Below, piece by piece: positions 2,537 to 52,063 of a stretch of DNA of 64,000 nucleotides. The position numbers and the translations under genes are program-made. Source of the DNA: Candidatus Multivoradales bacterium (GTDB lineage Bacteria; Acidobacteriota; Thermoanaerobaculia; Multivoradales; JAHEKO01); NCBI GenBank assembly GCA_965248055.1, contig CBDFIJ010000004.1, forward strand, positions 928,001-992,000, written 5' to 3'. Below the pieces are notes generated by a model. It was not told the DNA's origin, did not search any database, and saw nothing but the letters and a program-made list of their open reading frames with translations. Positions within the stretch are counted from its first letter, which is position 1. Every line of letters starts with the position of its first letter.

Positions 2537-5500
2537 CTAACCCGAGGTCTTAGACCTAGGCAGTCCTCGTGAACGCCAGATGAAATAGATCGCTGGGAAG
2601 ACTATCAACTCGGCGAGAAAAGAAGTGACAATTCCACCCACCATGGGCGCCGCGATCCGGCGCATCACGTCGGCTCCAGCTCCGGTGGCCCAGAGGATCG
2701 GGATCAAGGAAAACAACACCGTCAGCACGGTCATCATTTTCGGACGAATTCTTTGCACCGCTCCATGGTCAACCGCTTGGCGTAAATCTGCGTAGGAAGT
2801 CATCTGTCCTTGGTCGCGCCAACGTTGATAGGCCAAGTCCAAGTACAGCAACATCACCACGCCGGTCTCAGCCGCCAAACCCGCCAGGGCGATCACCCCG
2901 ACCCAGACGGCGATCGACCAGTTGTAGTCGAGTAGCCACAGCAGCCAGACCGACCCAACCAGGGAAAACGGAATCGCCGAGAGCACCATCGCGGTTTTCA
3001 CCAGCGATTTGGTGTGAAAGTAGAGAATCAGACAGATCAATGCCAGCGTCAGCGGCACGATCAGCAACAGCCGTGCCCTCGCCCGCTGCATGTACTCGTA
3101 TTGACCAGACCACAGAATGGTAGTGCCCGGCGGCAACTGCACCTGTTCGGCGACCTCCTGCTGCGCTCGCTTGACCCAGGAGCCGATGTCGATACCGCGC
3201 AAATCAACATAGACCCACGCGTTGGGCCGAGCATTCTCTGACTTGATCGCCGGGGGTCCTTCGCGAAACTCGACGCTGGCAATTTTGCCCAAAGGAATCT
3301 GGGCCCCGCTGGGCGTTGCCACCAGAATTTCACGCAGGCTGGCTGGATCCGACCGCAACTCGCGCGGGTAGCGTACGTTGATCGGATAACGCTCCAAACC
3401 CTCAACTGTGGTGGAAACACTCATGCCGCCGATCGCCGACTGCACAACCTCTTGGACATCGGCGACCGCCAGTCCGTAGCGAGCAGCGGCTTCGCGGTCG
3501 ATCTCGACGTCCAGGTAGTTGCCGCCCATCACCCGCTCAGCATAGGCCGACAGGGTTCCGGGCAGAGGTTTGACCACCGCTTCGACCTGCTCGGCGATGC
3601 GCTCCAATTGGCGTAGGTCGGGCCCGGCGATCTTGATGCCAACCGGGGTCTTGATGCCGGTCGACAGCATGTCGATGCGGGTCTTGATCGGCATGGTCCA
3701 AGAATTGGTGACTCCAGGAAACTGGATCGCCGCATCCATTTCTGCAATCAAGTCGTCCTTGCTCAGCCCGGTGCGCCACTGCGACTGATCTTTCAGAACG
3801 ATGGTGGTCTCGATCATCGACAAGGGCGCCGGGTCGGTCGCGGTATCCGCCCGCCCGACTTTGCCAAACACCGTCTCGACCTCGGGAAAGGTAACCAAGA
3901 TTTTGTCGGTCTGTTGCAGAATCTCTTTGGCCTTGGTGATCGAAATCCCAGGCAATGTGGTCGGCATGTAGAGCAAATCGCCCTCCCACAGCGGCGGCAT
4001 GAACTCCGATCCGATCCCTTGCAGCGGAACCAGGGTGACCAACAAGACAACCACCGCGGCCCCCACAACCAGCCAACGCCAGCGCAACGCCCAGCGAACC
4101 ACCGGTCGATAGAGCCAGCGCATGAATCGCGACACCGGATTCTGGTCCTCGGAGCGTATCCGCCCGCGCACGAACCAATACATCAACACCGGTACCACGG
4201 TGACCGCCAACAGCGCGGACAAACCCATGGCATAGGTCTTGGTGAACGCCAAAGGCTTAAACAGCCTTCCCTCCTGCGCCTCCAGAGTGAAGATCGGGAT
4301 GAACGAAACGGTGATCACCAACAGGGTGAAAAATAGTGTCGGTCCGACCTCTTGTGCGGAGCGCAAAATGATCTCGAAATGGCTTCGTTCGCCACGCCAC
4401 TGTTCGTAGTGCTTGTGGGCGTTCTCGACCATGATGATCGAAGCATCGACCAGCACTCCAATCGAGATTGCGATGCCCCCCAACGACATGATGTTGGCCC
4501 CCAACCCCTGGAAGTGCATCACCACAAACGCGAGCAGAATTGACACCGGGATCGAGATGATCGCCACCAGCGCGGAGCGAACATGAAACAAGAACAACAG
4601 ACAAATCAGCGCCACCACCACCGACTCTTCGATCAAGGTATGGGTCAGGGTCTCAACCGAGCGTTCAATCAGTCCAGTACGGTCGTAGGCGATCGAGATC
4701 TCCACGTCCTCCGGCAAACCTTTCTTGAGTTCTGCCAGTCGTTCGCGAACCCTCGTGATAGTGCTGCGAGTGTCGGCACCCGAGCGCACCACGACGATCC
4801 CGCCCACCGTTTCGCCCTCGCCGTTCCACTCCGCCAAACCACGCCGCACCTCGGGACCGATCGACACCGTGGCAACATCGCTGAGCAACACCGGGGTACC
4901 CCCTGGGCTACTGGCGAGCACAGCGTTTTCCAAGTCTCGAACTTCGCGGATGTAGCCGCGACCGCGCACCATGAACTCGCTCTCCGCGATTTCGATCAAC
5001 CCACCTCCGACCTCGACGTTGGAACGTTGGATCGCGCTGCGCACTTTATTGAGCGACAGGTTGTAAGCCCGCAGTCGAACCGGGTCGACCTCCACCTGAT
5101 ATTGGCGGACAAAGCCGCCCACCGACGCCACCTCGGAGACTCCGTCAACCGCCGACAAACCAAACTTCAAGTACCAGTCTTGCAAACTACGCAGCTCCGC
5201 CAGGGTCCGCTGCGGGGAGTTCAAGGTATACATGAAGGCCCAACCGACTCCGGTGGCGTCGGGCCCCAACTGAGGTGTGACTCCGGTGGGCAAATCACCC
5301 GCTAACGACGACAGGTACTCCAGCACCCGGCTACGCGCCCAATAGAGATCGGTACCGTCTTCAAAAATTACATAAACGAAAGAGAAGCCAAAAAACGAAT
5401 AGCCCCGGACCACTTTGGCGAACGGCACCGACAGCATCTTGGTGGTCAGCGGATAGGTCACCTGGTCTTCCACCACCTGCGGTGACTGACCGGGGAACTC

Positions 5501-15227: not shown

Positions 15228-16205
15228 CTAACAAGAAAGTGTATGCGTCCATGACATTTGGCACTGATCGGTATGTTCAGCTACGTATTGTAGCGGTGGT
15301 CTTTGTCCGTGGCTCCAGTGGGGCCTTTCGGCGTTAAACCAGAGCATCCAGTCGAAGAGTTTTTGGTTGAAAGCTTGGAGGTCAGTGAAGAGCAAGTCTT
15401 CGTTGTAGTCAACGAATTTCTCTTGGATGGTTCGATTGAATCTCTCGGCTTGGGCGTTCATCTTCGGGCACCTGGGGTAGGTGTACCAGCGTTTGATTCC
15501 AGCCTCAGCAGCTTTCTTGTCGAAGGCTCCTTGAAACTCACTACCGTTGTCTGAGAGCACCGTAGTAACAGCAAATGGCAAGACATCAAGGCTCAGGTCC
15601 AGAAAGCGCGCTGCCGTGCTCGAGGTGTGGGAGTTGGTGGCTATTGCCAGACTCATGCTGCTGGCGGCATCGGTCAGAGTGATCAAGTACCGGCGTTGGC
15701 CATCACAGAATCGCTCGATGGTATCTACTGCCACCCACTGGCCAGGCGAGCATGCCTTGGTTCCTTTAGGTTTGCGAGGCTTACGCTTTCGTTTTGCTTT
15801 CACTCGACCCAGGCGATCAATCCTTTGAGGCACCAAGCGCATCTTGTCGGGAGCATCGCCAATGATGCGGCCGATGGTGCTCACCGAGGGGCAGGTAATT
15901 CCCCTTACTTCACACCAGGGTTTCAACAGCGGATAGATCTTGTCCTTGCCAAGATTGGGCTCTTTGACCCGCAATCGACCGATCTCAGAGACCACCTCAG
16001 CTGGCCACTTGCGCCGTCTTCTTTTCTTCGGAGCTGTTGATTGAGGGTTTAGAGAGGTTAGCTCTCCTTTGCACCTACCAAGACGAGACTTCCAGCGGTA
16101 CAGAGTCCTCCGGCTGACCGAAAATGCATCGATCGCTGCATCGATCCCATGCTCCTGCCAGAATCTCAATGCGCGGATACGTTTCTCAGCGCTATCTTGG
16201 GTCAT
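15228..16205 (-). CDS. IS481-family DDE (rve) transposase; native N-terminus (ATG 17716) separated by the IS256 insertion
   Basis: HTH VSRRTLYRW; DDE core VAVDT..SDNGSEF..AERFNRTIQE. Confidence 0.88.
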   Translation of the reverse strand: MTQDSAEKRIRALRFWQEHGIDAAIDAFSVSRRTLYRWKSRLGRCKGELTSLNPQSTAPKKRRRRKWPAEVVSEIGRLRVKEPNLGKDKIYPLLKPWCEVRGITCPSVSTIGRIIGDAPDKMRLVPQRIDRLGRVKAKRKRKPRKPKGTKACSPGQWVAVDTIERFCDGQRRYLITLTDAASSMSLAIATNSHTSSTAARFLDLSLDVLPFAVTTVLSDNGSEFQGAFDKKAAEAGIKRWYTYPRCPKMNAQAERFNRTIQEKFVDYNEDLLFTDLQAFNQKLFDWMLWFNAERPHWSHGQRPPLQYVAEHTDQCQMSWTHTLSC

Positions 16206-50227: not shown

Positions 50228-50488
50228 CTAGGTGCCTTCCGGGCTCAGCGTGGGCAAAATCGACTGCTCGTGCAGGTAGTCCACGAACCTCTTGACGTCC
50301 TTTGCGCGGAAGTCGGTCGACCTGAAGCTGCGAAGATCCTGCTTGCGATCTCGGTACGCAGCCCGCAAGTCATTAAACAGCCGGAAGCCGGATTCGTTTA
50401 CTCTATATACCGTGTCTGACACGGTGTCGTACAGGATGCCTCCGAAGTCCTCTTCCCTGGTTTTGATGTTTTCGAACGGTTCGGCCAA
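50228..50488 (-). CDS. PqqD/MftB-like RiPP recognition element (RRE)
   Basis: REEDFGGILYD..VYRVNESG..DVKRFVDYLHEQSIL; lies between the precursor and the rSAM; TTG start has no obvious RBS. Confidence 0.82.
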   Translation of the reverse strand: MAEPFENIKTREEDFGGILYDTVSDTVYRVNESGFRLFNDLRAAYRDRKQDLRSFRSTDFRAKDVKRFVDYLHEQSILPTLSPEGT

Positions 50489-50509
50489 ACTGGCCGCGAG
50501 GACAGACTC

Positions 50510-50941
50510 TCACGTGCCGGTGTTCTGAGCCCACTGGGCCACCCAGCTGTTGTGCGCCCATTGGGCTCTCCATGGGAGGACGGAGGAGGAGGCCGATGGC
50601 ACCTGGTCGAGGATGTCGGGGTCGAACTCGGCCAGTGGCACCTTCTTGGCGGCGAGTTGCTCGGTTCCCAGCGAGGCCAGGACTTTCTCCGTTGGAAACT
50701 CGCCACCGGTTAGGTGCGGCTGCTTCGTGACCCCCTCCGGTGGGAGGTCCGCGTCGGCGATCCGATTCCGGGAGAACACCTGCGTCTCCACCTCCCGGAA
50801 GGCGCAGACCCTGTTGCTCTTCAAGTCCACCCGTGCCTCCGAGCGTTTCTTGAGAAAAGTGGTATGTCCCTTGTCGACCGGAAATTCCTGGTTGAGGGAG
50901 TACATAAACAACTCGATGTGCGGGGATTCCTGTCCCTTCAT
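50510..50941 (-). CDS. Putative RiPP precursor (143 aa) with a tandem Trp-rich C-terminal core
   Basis: GAGGAGG RBS; leader-like AEFDPDILDQV; core WRAQWAHNS-WVAQWAQNT-GT; directly upstream of the RRE and rSAM. Confidence 0.75.
   Translation of the reverse strand: MKGQESPHIELFMYSLNQEFPVDKGHTTFLKKRSEARVDLKSNRVCAFREVETQVFSRNRIADADLPPEGVTKQPHLTGGEFPTEKVLASLGTEQLAAKKVPLAEFDPDILDQVPSASSSVLPWRAQWAHNSWVAQWAQNTGT
50519..50572 (-). repeat. 2 x 27-nt (9-aa) core repeat W-x-A-Q-W-A-x-N-[S/T]
   Basis: TGGAGAGCCCAATGGGCGCACAACAGC / TGGGTGGCCCAGTGGGCTCAGAACACC. Confidence 0.85.
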
Positions 50942-50984
50942 AGCTCCGCCTCCTCTTGAAAGTGCGTTGTTGGTCACCTAATGG

Positions 50985-51012
50985 AATATCACACAAAAGA
51001 GGCCGATGTCAA
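50985..51012 (-). promoter_or_regulatory. Putative sigma70 promoter of the RiPP-like operon
   Basis: Perfect TTGACA at 51012-51007 and TG-T-GATATT extended -10-like element. Confidence 0.55.
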
Positions 51013-52063
51013 ATTCCTGTATGCGTCCATGACATTTGGCACTGATCGGTATGTTCAGCTACGTATTGTAACGGTGGTCTTTGTCCGTGGCTCCAGTGGG
51101 GCCTTTCGGCGTTAAACCAGAGCATCCAGTCGAAGAGTTTTTGGTTGAAAGCTTGGAGGTCAGTGAAGAGCAAGTCTTCGTTGTAGTCAACGAATTTCTC
51201 TTGGATGGTTCGATTGAATCTCTCGGCTTGGGCGTTCATCTTCGGGCATCTGGGGTAGGTGTACCAGCGTTTGATTCCAGCCTCAGCAGCTTTCTTGTCG
51301 AAGGCTCCTTGAAACTCACTACCGTTGTCTGAGAGCACGGTAGTAACAGCAAATGGCAAGACATCAAGGCTCAGGTCCAGAAAGCGCGCTGCCGTGCTCG
51401 AGGTGTGGGAGTTGGTGGCTATTGCAGCAGACTCATGCTGCTGGCGGCATCGGTCAGAGTGATCAAGTACCGGCGTTGGCCATCACAGAATCGCTCGATG
51501 GTATCTACTGCCACCCACTGGCTAGGCGAGCATGCCTTGGTTCCTTTAGGTTTGCGAGGCTTACGCTTTCGTTTTGCTTTCACTCGACCCAGGCGATCAA
51601 TCCTTTGAGGCACCAAGCGCATCTTGTCGGGAGCATCGCCAATGATGCGGCCGATGGTGCTCACCGAGGGGCAGGTAATTCCCCTTACTTCACACCAGGG
51701 TTTCAACAGCGGATAGATCTTGTCCTTGCCAAGATTGGGCTCTTTGACTCGCAATCGACCGATCTCAGAGACCACCTCAGCTGGCCACTTGCGCCGTCTT
51801 CTTTTCTTCGGAGCTGTTGATTGAGGGTTTAGAGAGGTTAGCTCTCCTTTGCACCTACCAAGACAAGACTTCCAGCGGTACAGAGTCCTCCGGCTCACCG
51901 AAAATGCATCGATCGCTGCATCGATCCCATGCTCCTGCCAGAATCTCAATGCTCGGATACGTTTCTCAGCGCTATCTTGGGTCATGACCCAAGATACCCC
52001 TAGATGACGAAGATGTCCCAGGCCTTGGAAACGCCCTCTGATCAACCTCATGCTCAGCGACAC
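51009..52063 (-). pseudogene. Frameshifted IS481 transposase
   Basis: 2-bp insertion near 51425 (ATTGCAGCAGAC versus ATTGCCAGAC in copy 1) splits the ORF into 51419..52063 and 51009..51359. Confidence 0.88.

Follow-up and report, generated by a model that had tools for sequence, protein, structure and literature searches.

The locus described here lies on the minus strand of the window, that is, the whole stretch of 64,000 nucleotides that was analysed from contig CBDFIJ010000004.1 of a Candidatus Multivoradales bacterium, and its features are listed in Table 1. As the sequence-only reading had proposed, a precursor ORF of 143 codons runs from ATG 50941 to TGA 50512-50510 and is followed in frame by the seven codons of ESVLAAS and by an RRE ORF of 86 codons, from TTG 50488-50486 to TAG 50230-50228. 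Translation of the joined frame gives 237 aa, the read-through length claimed at that stage. The next gene encodes a radical SAM/SPASM enzyme, whose ATG is preceded by an SD-like GAGGAG, so that both starts flanking the TTG carry an SD sequence. The TTG itself was correctly described as having none (no GGAG, GAGG or AGGA occurs in the preceding 20 nt) and as buried in a hairpin. The promoter upstream of the cassette is a consensus match only, with one site in 2.3 kb against a shuffle mean of 0.6. An assembly error at the TGA, which had been raised as a concern, is unlikely, because in three of four sequencing runs, which stem from one sample that may have been the source of the assembly, the contigs match the stretch without a single difference, and six other assemblies show the same TGA.

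Table 1. Features of the cassette and its upstream flank, in window positions
Feature	Position	Strand	Basis
Radical SAM/SPASM enzyme gene, 331 aa	49200..50195	-	PF04055 76.7 bits (cut-off 29.5); PF13186 25.1 bits (cut-off 21.5)
Proposed single selenoprotein gene (leader, Trp-rich core, Sec144, RRE), 237 codons + stop	50228..50941	-	Read-through translation; single-ORF relatives; TGA/TGT/TGC at one codon
RRE (PqqD/MftB-like winged-helix), residues ~154-233	50243..50482	-	Predicted fold; structural matches; weak profile matches in some members
SECIS-like hairpin	50482..50496	-	MFE fold in 7/7 TGA loci; 5-bp consensus stem; synonymous divergence depressed
In-frame UGA, proposed Sec144	50510..50512	-	TGA in 7/7 split loci; TGT/TGC in two fused close relatives with DNA; Cys in P0002
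Trp-rich putative core PWRAQWAHNSWVAQWAQNTGT, residues 123-143	50513..50575	-	W124, W133 >=90% conserved; Trp halogenase neighbours in relatives
N-terminal leader-like motif IELFMYSLNQEFP, residues 9-21	50879..50917	-	Conservation across 41 sequences; strand 9-13, pLDDT ~80
Shine-Dalgarno-like GAGGAGG	50949..50955	-	7 nt upstream of ATG 50941; read directly
Sigma-70-like promoter match, upstream of cassette, at edge of IS copy	50985..51012	-	TTGACA, 16 nt, GATATT; TG before second hexamer; 10/12 matches
IS copy (HTH and rve_3 integrase-core ORFs), directly upstream, outside cassette	51009..52063	-	PF13683, HTH families

In the leader region Q18 and E19 are invariant across 41 sequences, and conservation reaches 90% or more at P7, I9, E10, L11 and F20. 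The putative core shows the pattern WxAQW..N.WVAQW, followed by the motif T-U-E-[SP]. The RRE was modelled with a pLDDT above 90 as strands 159-164, 167-172 and 177-182 and helices 183-197 and 213-225; the three strands of a winged helix are thus followed by helices, of which DSSP called only two with at least four residues. The best structural match was TbiB1 (rmsd 2.5 over 72 aligned residues, with a modest Z of 6.2), and many RREs stood among the top rows. Foldseek returned no match in the PDB at E <=0.001, and the window's RRE reached no curated profile cut-off (no Pfam family; MftB 15.2 bits vs 33). Within the family, PF05402 matched 3 of the 41 members and MftB 5, with E up to 0.01. A predicted contact between residues 1-60 and 150-237 scored 0.35 against 0.02 for the best control, which lends weak support to an interaction of leader and RRE. 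Of 157 solved complexes 116 attain the score mark, as do 2 of 215 mismatched pairs; at scores of 0.60 or less, however, just 18 of the 157 complexes and both mismatches reach it. Between runs the contacts agreed to at least 76%, with a partner pLDDT of at least 43.

The alignment of homologous loci had been recommended at the outset as a check. Among the split loci with DNA the codon is TGA in seven of seven (the window, L002, L003, L013, L014, L015 and L018), and in every one of them the RRE is in frame, with seven codons between the TGA and an L/W codon. The nearest fused relatives carry Cys at exactly this codon, encoded by TGT in L016 and TGC in L017 and also present in the protein-only record P0002. 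Frame and hairpin are kept in the TGA loci, and none of the homologs examined showed the patterns named beforehand as contradicting read-through, namely TAA or TAG at the stop, an out-of-frame RRE with its own RBS, or TGG or CGA at the codon. In this genome TGA terminates 608 of 1660 frames of at least 300 codons (37%); the seven TGA loci do not represent seven independent events, because they are related and fall in two clades. More distant members have no Cys aligned to the Sec144 position, and the UGA lies outside a CxxU motif, as had been cautioned, with no classic redox motif at the Sec position.

The codons downstream of the TGA behave as coding sequence. They vary synonymously, the second one being CCT, CCC, CCA or CCG (Pro) in six of nine loci. 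The window's TTG is replaced by TGG (Trp) in L014, L015 and L018, and in L014 and L015 the TGA is followed by no in-frame ATG, GTG or TTG until the invariant motif R-E-x-F-G is reached. Purifying selection was detected on the RRE (pN 0.20 vs pS 0.52) and in the nine codons before it (pN 0.09 vs pS 0.72), in figures that are pooled across the comparisons of clade A with L014/L015 rather than given per locus and that rest on few sites, with 8 synonymous differences over 8 non-independent pairs. The core segment was left out of these figures because a 3-codon indel misaligns it between the clades.

When the read-through protein was used as query in an exhaustive HMMER search, 38 matches to distant relatives were retrieved, 31 of which carry leader, Trp-rich core and RRE in a single ORF of 125-213 aa; a continuous ORF is also present in 8 of 16 metagenome loci. 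The fused architecture is thus seen directly in the family. Of 24 matches in the 90%-cluster database, 20 are gene calls that end exactly at the TGA position. Among the protein matches of the HMMER search, one entry (P0004) consists of the RRE only. P0018 and P0057 appear to be calls that are out of frame across the core and were left out of the alignments. No Pfam or NCBIfam model was found for the leader-core-RRE family. The cassette was not found in 60 relatives searched. Two samples of the phylum, with 401 genomes apiece, yielded a full-length match only in G061 and G000, respectively, all other matches being weak and confined to the RRE.

The genome is equipped for selenocysteine insertion. 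It encodes SelB (340.9 bits, cut-off 242.25), SelA (450.2 bits, cut-off 267.9), a SelD that contains Sec and has an in-frame TGA of its own, and tRNA-SeC. For L002 and L003 the genomes also have SelB above its cut-off, so that every TGA-type genome open to this check, three in all, has it. The hairpin CGGCCA-GUU-UGGCCG was found where the earlier reading had placed it, at 50496-50482, with 19 nt from UGA to loop. A hairpin 18-19 nt past the UGA, with a G within the first two loop positions, is part of the MFE fold in all seven TGA loci and in neither of the two Cys loci; L017, with TGC, retains the hairpin letters, and its MFE fold leaves them unused. The published bSECIS model allows a loop of 3-9 nt, a stem of 4-16 bp, a G in the first two loop positions, a spacing of 16-37 nt and an MFE of at most -7.5 kcal/mol (PMC13188914), and the hairpins of all seven TGA loci fall within it (-9.8 to -16.4 kcal/mol), with a stem of just 5-6 bp and a loop of 3-5 nt. 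In a bulge-free scan with the same limits five of the seven passed, a scan too strict to settle the matter because it also missed the SECIS of an AhpD-like gene in the window.

By that scan, 37 of the 608 ordinary TGA stops after frames of at least 300 codons in this genome (6.1%) are followed by such a hairpin, 11 of them at a spacing of 16-22 nt. The hairpin alone is therefore uncommon, not rare, and the weight of the argument falls on the comparative data. In the eight codons after the TGA synonymous divergence is 0.17 against 0.52-0.72 in the flanks, a depression that fits a constraint at the RNA level. The alignment of TGA loci contains no compensatory pairs in the hairpin, and conservation of the hairpin is not independent of the protein, as its arms overlap the conserved codons T-A-S-L/W-A/S. 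Its stability is about that of shuffled sequence (Z -0.05 to -2.2 over 45 nt from the UGA; +0.76 over a 91-nt stretch). Rfam gave no gathering-threshold match in the window, and in E-value mode two weak, irrelevant rows and no SECIS family.

The radical SAM gene is a constant partner. Its product shows the CxxxCxxC motif as C-DLA-C-KY-C and a SPASM region at the C-terminus. The gene lies directly downstream in 15 of 18 related loci, the contig ending first in the other three, and it is intact in the TGA loci L014, L002 and L003, with 326-330 residues aligned at 84-87% identity. In L017 it is split over two frames. Trp halogenase genes adjoin the cassette in L020 and L025.

Taken as a whole, our findings make it likely that 50941-50228 is one gene, encoding a selenoprotein of 237 residues with Sec144, and not two genes, and this protein probably represents a new selenoprotein family within an uncurated radical SAM cassette. 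We hypothesize that SelB and tRNA-Sec decode the UGA as Sec144, aided by the hairpin downstream. The resulting single chain would carry the leader-like motif, the Trp-rich core, the T-U-E-[SP] motif and the C-terminal RRE, the last possibly acting as a docking module built into the chain. Modification of the Trp-rich segment, of the Sec/Cys residue, or of both would presumably fall to the co-transcribed radical SAM/SPASM enzyme. Termination at the UGA would leave a leader-core chain of 143 residues lacking the RRE. A further step, which we consider unlikely, is that the UGA serves as a selenium-gated branch point; if true, a peptide-modification pathway would here be controlled by recoding in a new way. 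Upon Sec insertion, the RRE of the full chain would present core and selenol to the radical SAM enzyme, possibly leading to a selenoether or a selenium-ligated cross-link; upon termination, the free leader-core chain would be processed only in trans by RRE-bearing copies, and selenium supply would determine how much product is made and of what chemistry. Equally speculative is the suggestion of the sequence-only reading that selenium might set the ratio of free to RRE-tethered precursor.

The same locus could also hold two ordinary genes, with the TGA a true stop. The RRE would then be made separately, through re-initiation or translational coupling that starts from the TTG or, in relatives, from a non-canonical codon, and the arrangement would go back to a fused ancestor in which a Cys codon mutated to a stop and the split form persisted. 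Gene callers divide the locus in this way in 20 of the 24 database entries, the RRE-only entry P0004 agrees with it, L018 has a GTG directly after the TGA, and stand-alone RREs are described as normal in the PQQ, mycofactocin and many lasso systems (PMC12710340). Moreover, TGC or TGT becomes TGA by a single-base change, so that Cys in the relatives fits a nonsense origin too. Against this stand L014 and L015, which lack a canonical start ahead of the invariant RRE motif, and the window's own TTG, without an SD sequence and inside the hairpin. Frame and spacing are identical in seven of seven loci despite many indels in the leader-core spacer, the codons past the TGA change synonymously, and all seven loci use TGA, a codon that ends just 37% of long frames. 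We thus regard two separate genes as improbable. The frame, the missing starts and the coding-like evolution of the linker would fit any kind of read-through, including a leaky or programmed one in which a near-cognate Trp, Cys or Arg is inserted and the hairpin is only a stimulator or pause site; the small size of the hairpin, its lack of covariation and of an Rfam match also suit this explanation. What speaks for Sec instead is that each of the three closest fused relatives has Cys at this codon, rather than Trp or Arg, that SelB is above its cut-off in every checkable TGA-type genome, and that the loop has a G in its first two positions, then a U, at the spacing of a bSECIS. Read-through free of Sec therefore seems very improbable to us.

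A last alternative takes the TGA for a recent nonsense mutation in a decaying, mobile cassette flanked by IS elements. One IS copy does abut the cassette and a second (~15240-15947) lies 35.8 kb away, the cassette was not found in the 60 relatives or in the 400 other genomes of each phylum sample, and the radical SAM gene of L017 lies in two frames. Yet the same TGA recurs in seven loci whose precursors are down to ~57% identical, and both halves of the frame as well as the radical SAM gene are under purifying selection. Because of this conservation across the TGA loci, decay is close to refuted, and we give it hardly any credence.

Among the closest known systems, the mycofactocin system (MftA, the RRE chaperone MftB, and MftC) likewise combines a small peptide, a PqqD-like RRE and a SPASM radical SAM enzyme in a cassette with no nearby protease or exporter. 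MftA is modified on residues at its C-terminal position. The best NCBIfam matches were MftC for the radical SAM enzyme of the window and MftB for its RRE, neither reaching the equivalog cut-off (82.5 vs 265 and 15.2 vs 33, respectively). The present family departs from mycofactocin in joining substrate and RRE in a single polypeptide, in having a Trp-rich core at an internal position, and in the Sec/Cys of one clade. A thio(seleno)oxazole RiPP modified by SbtM, in which a TGA with a SECIS directly downstream lies inside the substrate of a radical SAM/SPASM enzyme (PMC11002830), offers a precedent for the arrangement proposed here, and the only one we found, in the literature as far as it was accessible, for a radical SAM enzyme whose substrate or scaffold contains Sec. 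It differs in its radical SAM enzyme (that of the window scores 61.6 bits vs a cut-off of 350 for TIGR04082), in an unrelated precursor family and in the position of Sec, which here falls between the core and the fused RRE. The link to Geobacter precursors drawn in the sequence-only reading was not supported, the GeoRSP radical SAM model TIGR04303 scoring 79 bits against a cut-off of 400.

With other bacterial selenoproteins, such as SelD and the AhpD-like CxxU protein, the proposed gene shares an in-frame UGA, aligned Cys homologs, the Sec machinery and a hairpin 17-24 nt past the UGA that has a G in the first two loop positions; unlike them, its Sec would lie outside a CxxU/UxxC redox motif and the protein is no oxidoreductase. 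In the parts available of a 2026 review, the table of selenoproteins contained neither this family nor a PqqD/RRE selenoprotein (PMC13188914), and our literature search returned no paper combining 'selenoprotein' with 'PqqD'. The three-strand, helical winged-helix fold is shared with PqqD, TbiB1, lasso B1 and the N-termini of CteB and SuiB. In the literature consulted, known RREs either stand alone or are fused to enzymes (PMC7470986, PMC12710340, PMC13692751), unlike the present one, which is fused C-terminally to the apparent substrate itself. The literature searched, in its accessible portions, described neither a natural fusion of substrate and RRE nor the leader-core-RRE family, in which the three parts share one chain beside an MftC-like radical SAM/SPASM enzyme. 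If the preferred reading of one selenoprotein gene is true, no fewer than 20 database entries are wrongly annotated, as truncated 'hypothetical proteins' and orphan RREs, and selenoproteins would extend beyond the usual redox enzymes to a protein that serves a radical SAM enzyme as substrate or scaffold. With Sec, Cys or neither at one position, the family could serve as a natural experiment to show what selenium contributes to radical SAM peptide chemistry.

Elsewhere in the window, two clear SECIS elements with spacings of 21 and 24 nt had been reported. The one with 24 nt was recovered, in the AhpD-like CMD-family gene (minus strand, CYYU motif, UGA 739-737), and the one with 21 nt was not found. 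A relaxed scan of the window for a TGA plus hairpin gave about 60 candidates; the most gene-like of those considered for the second element, 24749-24747 on the minus strand, was dropped as it had no Pfam family. In a Pfam scan of 55 read-through ORFs, the TGA fell inside a domain only in the AhpD-like gene.

Re-reading of the window DNA proved all sequence statements of the earlier, sequence-only reading correct: precursor and RRE share one frame across a single TGA, with ESVLAAS and then the TTG ORF following in frame, and the hairpin CGGCCA-GUU-UGGCCG (50496-50482) contains this TTG, which has no SD sequence ahead of it. The product of the adjacent radical SAM gene matched PF04055 (76.7 bits) and PF13186 (25.1 bits), both above cut-offs. 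A Pfam search returned no family for either small ORF, and the MftB match of the second one was sub-threshold (15.2 bits vs a cut-off of 33).

Coordinates of the cassette and of a further gene with an in-frame TGA (window positions)
Feature	Position	Strand	Remarks
Promoter-like site	51012-50985	minus	10/12 matches, TG before second hexamer
SD-like GAGGAGG	between promoter-like site and ATG 50941	minus	read from sequence
First ORF, 143 codons	ATG 50941 to TGA 50512-50510	minus	
Linker, 7 codons (ESVLAAS)	directly after TGA	minus	same frame as first ORF
Second ORF, 86 codons	TTG 50488 to TAG 50230-50228	minus	
Radical SAM/SPASM gene, 331 codons	50195-49200	minus	PF04055 + PF13186
AhpD-like gene (CMD family, PF02627)	395-994	minus	in-frame TGA 739-737, C-Y-Y-U motif

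The best explanation for this arrangement, and in our judgement a probable one, is a single selenoprotein gene. The junction codon was TGA in all seven split-type loci (the window, genome loci L002 and L003, metagenome loci L013, L014, L015 and L018), each with the RRE in frame with the precursor and with the same seven codons from the TGA to the codon matching the TTG of the window. In two close relatives with a continuous ORF, a Cys codon lies exactly at the TGA position (TGT in L016, TGC in L017), and the nearest fused protein in the databases, P0002, shares this Cys at the junction (..YTNT-C-EP..). The proposal that the TGA is read through as Sec was favored by the comparison of homologous loci. 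TGA at every locus would not be expected by default, because TGA ends only 608 of the 1660 long frames in G000, the genome holding the window. In the open frames of at least 300 codons counted there, stops were TAG (683), TGA (608) and TAA (369); TAG is unusually frequent among them, but some frames are possibly spurious in GC-rich DNA.

An exhaustive HMMER search using the translation through the TGA as query gave 38 matches, 31 of them single ORFs (125-213 aa) that all share the N-terminal motif P-x-IELYMYSLNQEFP-x-GKGH, a Trp-rich stretch (DW-x-AQW..N.W..NHTK or similar) and an RRE-like C-terminus (R-E-E-D-F-G-G ... VYK-x-N); the remaining seven were one precursor-only, one RRE-only and one frame-shifted protein, three fragments and one unrelated fusion. 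Of the 24 matches in the 90%-cluster database, 20 were gene calls of 137-170 aa with one common aligned end position (..QNTGT, ..HNAGT or ..YTNT), the others being three fusions and one apparently frame-shifted protein. Therefore, the "split" clade sits within a fused family. Scans recovered two genome and 16 metagenome loci; eight of the latter (L019, L020, L021, L022, L023, L025, L026 and L027) are continuous fusions without Cys at the junction, L019 having two tandem fused leader-core-RRE genes (139-693 and 1554-2048), and the contigs of L024 and L028 stop short of the RRE. The cassette is rare and its distribution patchy: a search of 60 relatives did not find it, full-length matches in two phylum samples (401 genomes each) came only from G061 and G000, respectively, and the record titles of L002 and L003 name Thermoanaerobaculaceae and Acidobacteriota MAGs. 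Two database proteins, P0018 and P0057, are gene calls that run out of frame across the Trp-rich core. At the junction they read "H-E", which agrees with (C/T)GA in the correct frame; mis-calling, or a frameshift in contigs of the split clade, is their likely origin.

Two separate genes, with the RRE translated by re-initiation, are an improbable alternative. L018 has a GTG immediately after the TGA, and the codon at the TTG "start" of the window is TGG in L014, L015, L018 and L017. Against re-initiation, L014 and L015 contain no in-frame ATG, GTG or TTG from the TGA to the invariant R-E-x-F-G motif, so that a canonical start of a separate RRE is impossible there. Even so, pooled over eight pairs of L014/L015 with clade A, one of the two clades of TGA loci, the RRE is under purifying selection (pN 0.20 vs pS 0.52), and values for the nine codons before it were 0.09 and 0.72. 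Decay of the cassette is very hard to credit. Read-through without Sec is likewise improbable. In G000, SelB (340.9 bits vs a cut-off of 242.25), SelA (450.2 vs 267.9) and tRNA-SeC are present, and SelB is above cut-off in the L002 and L003 genomes as well. The SelD of G000 has its own in-frame TGA (KTCGU; locus L029, G000:C4:1263431-1267354, ORF 1477-2529).

In the published bacterial SECIS model (PMC13188914), an apical loop of 3-9 nt with G in its first two positions tops a stem of 4-16 bp, with 16-37 nt from UGA to loop and an MFE of at most -7.5 kcal/mol. When 45 nt starting at the UGA were folded, the MFE fold of all seven TGA loci had a hairpin of 5-6 bp starting at +17 (loops GUU, AGUUG or AGUU; -9.8 to -16.4 kcal/mol), and that of neither Cys locus did: L016 lacks the letters, and L017 has them and folds otherwise. 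A stricter bulge-free scan passed five of the seven TGA loci and the SelD element of G000; it under-calls, because it missed the AhpD-like element of the window, and it matched after 37 of 608 ordinary TGA stops in G000 (6.1%). The hairpin on its own should not be weighted much, since RNAalifold found no compensatory pairs in it, its Z-scores against shuffles were modest (-0.05 to -2.2 for 45 nt, +0.76 for a longer stretch), Rfam searches gave no family for it and its arms overlap conserved codons. Between the two TGA clades, synonymous divergence over the eight codons that follow the UGA was 0.17, vs 0.52-0.72 in the flanks, and non-synonymous divergence was an ordinary 0.18, small numbers that are evidence for a putative RNA-level constraint after the UGA. 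The SelD hairpin, GAGUCC-GGUC-GGACUC, lies 17 nt after its UGA; the AhpD-like gene has a 7-bp hairpin (loop CGGGGU) 24 nt downstream of its UGA and is probably one of the two genes whose SECIS elements the sequence-only reading called clear.

AlphaFold2, run with an alignment of 41 rows, modeled the read-through protein with a mean pLDDT of 71.8, a confident short strand at residues 9-13, a disordered spacer and a C-terminal region of 80 residues (pLDDT >90) with three strands followed by helices. Foldseek gave no significant match, its top weak rows being RREs. In an exhaustive structural search, residues ~154-233 matched TbiB1 (Z 6.2, rmsd 2.5, 72 aligned), lasso B1 (Z 5.8), TigE (Z 5.7) and the PbtF RRE (Z 5.5), as well as MccB, CteB, NisB, LynD, PqqD (Z 3.9) and SuiB; for this predicted fold, enrichment for RREs is clear and the Z values are modest. 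Among family members, weak profile matches were found to PqqD (3/41) and MftB (5/41), and Atlas neighbors were MftB/PqqD clusters at 0.89, a lead only. Complex prediction of residues 1-60 with 150-237 scored 0.35 vs 0.02 for the best control, which is weak support. Solved complexes attained this mark in 116 of 157 cases and mismatched pairs in 2 of 215, but only 18 of the 157, together with both mismatches, did so at 0.60 or less. At least 76% of contacts agreed among runs, with partner pLDDT of at least 43, and docking of the leader on the RRE is plausible from these models.

In 15 of the 18 related loci, the next gene downstream is the radical SAM/SPASM gene; the contigs of the other three end before that point, and no conserved protease or exporter was found near the cassette in these loci. 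Trp halogenase genes (PF04820) adjoin the distant, Cys-less members in L020 (925-2496, E 7e-88) and L025 (2102-3334, E 3e-94), a hint of additional halogenation of the Trp-rich core, and L019 has a second, different radical SAM gene beyond the partner one (3315-4511, minus strand). Taken together, the halogenases in two distant loci and the second radical SAM gene suggest that chemistry takes place on the Trp-rich segment. The proposed Sec144 lies eight residues past the last Trp of the core. Because relatives have Cys or neither at this position, Sec would be an add-on to a conserved Trp-centered chemistry, a role suggested by sequence comparison. It might serve as a cross-link donor or as a ligand to an auxiliary cluster; contacts of substrate Cys/Sec with auxiliary clusters are the topic of PMC10177961. 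The sequence-only reading further suggested that selenium might set the ratio of free to RRE-tethered precursor. In the SbtM thio(seleno)oxazole system, a Sec codon and its SECIS are known to lie within a radical SAM/SPASM substrate (PMC11002830). RREs in the literature covered are stand-alone or fused to enzymes, and searches of open-access text, together with part of the selenoprotein table of PMC13188914, yielded neither a natural substrate-RRE fusion nor a selenoprotein with a PqqD-like domain; a prior description elsewhere is possible.

The best curated matches of the radical SAM protein were MftC (82.5 bits vs a cut-off of 265), GeoRSP (79 vs 400) and SbtM (61.6 vs 350); all scored far below cut-off, and its assignment to any of the three was rejected. 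In L017, the TGC locus with the hairpin letters, the radical SAM gene (389-1377) aligns in two frames overlapping at ~1006-1012, which reflects a frameshift or else a sequencing error. An IS copy (HTH + rve_3) adjoins the cassette in the window. It is one of two direct copies (15240-15947 and 51018-51727) that lie 35.8 kb apart, with 99-100% identity over the 300-nt blocks reported; since the cassette lies immediately inside the right-hand one, the segment between them could be a composite mobile unit.
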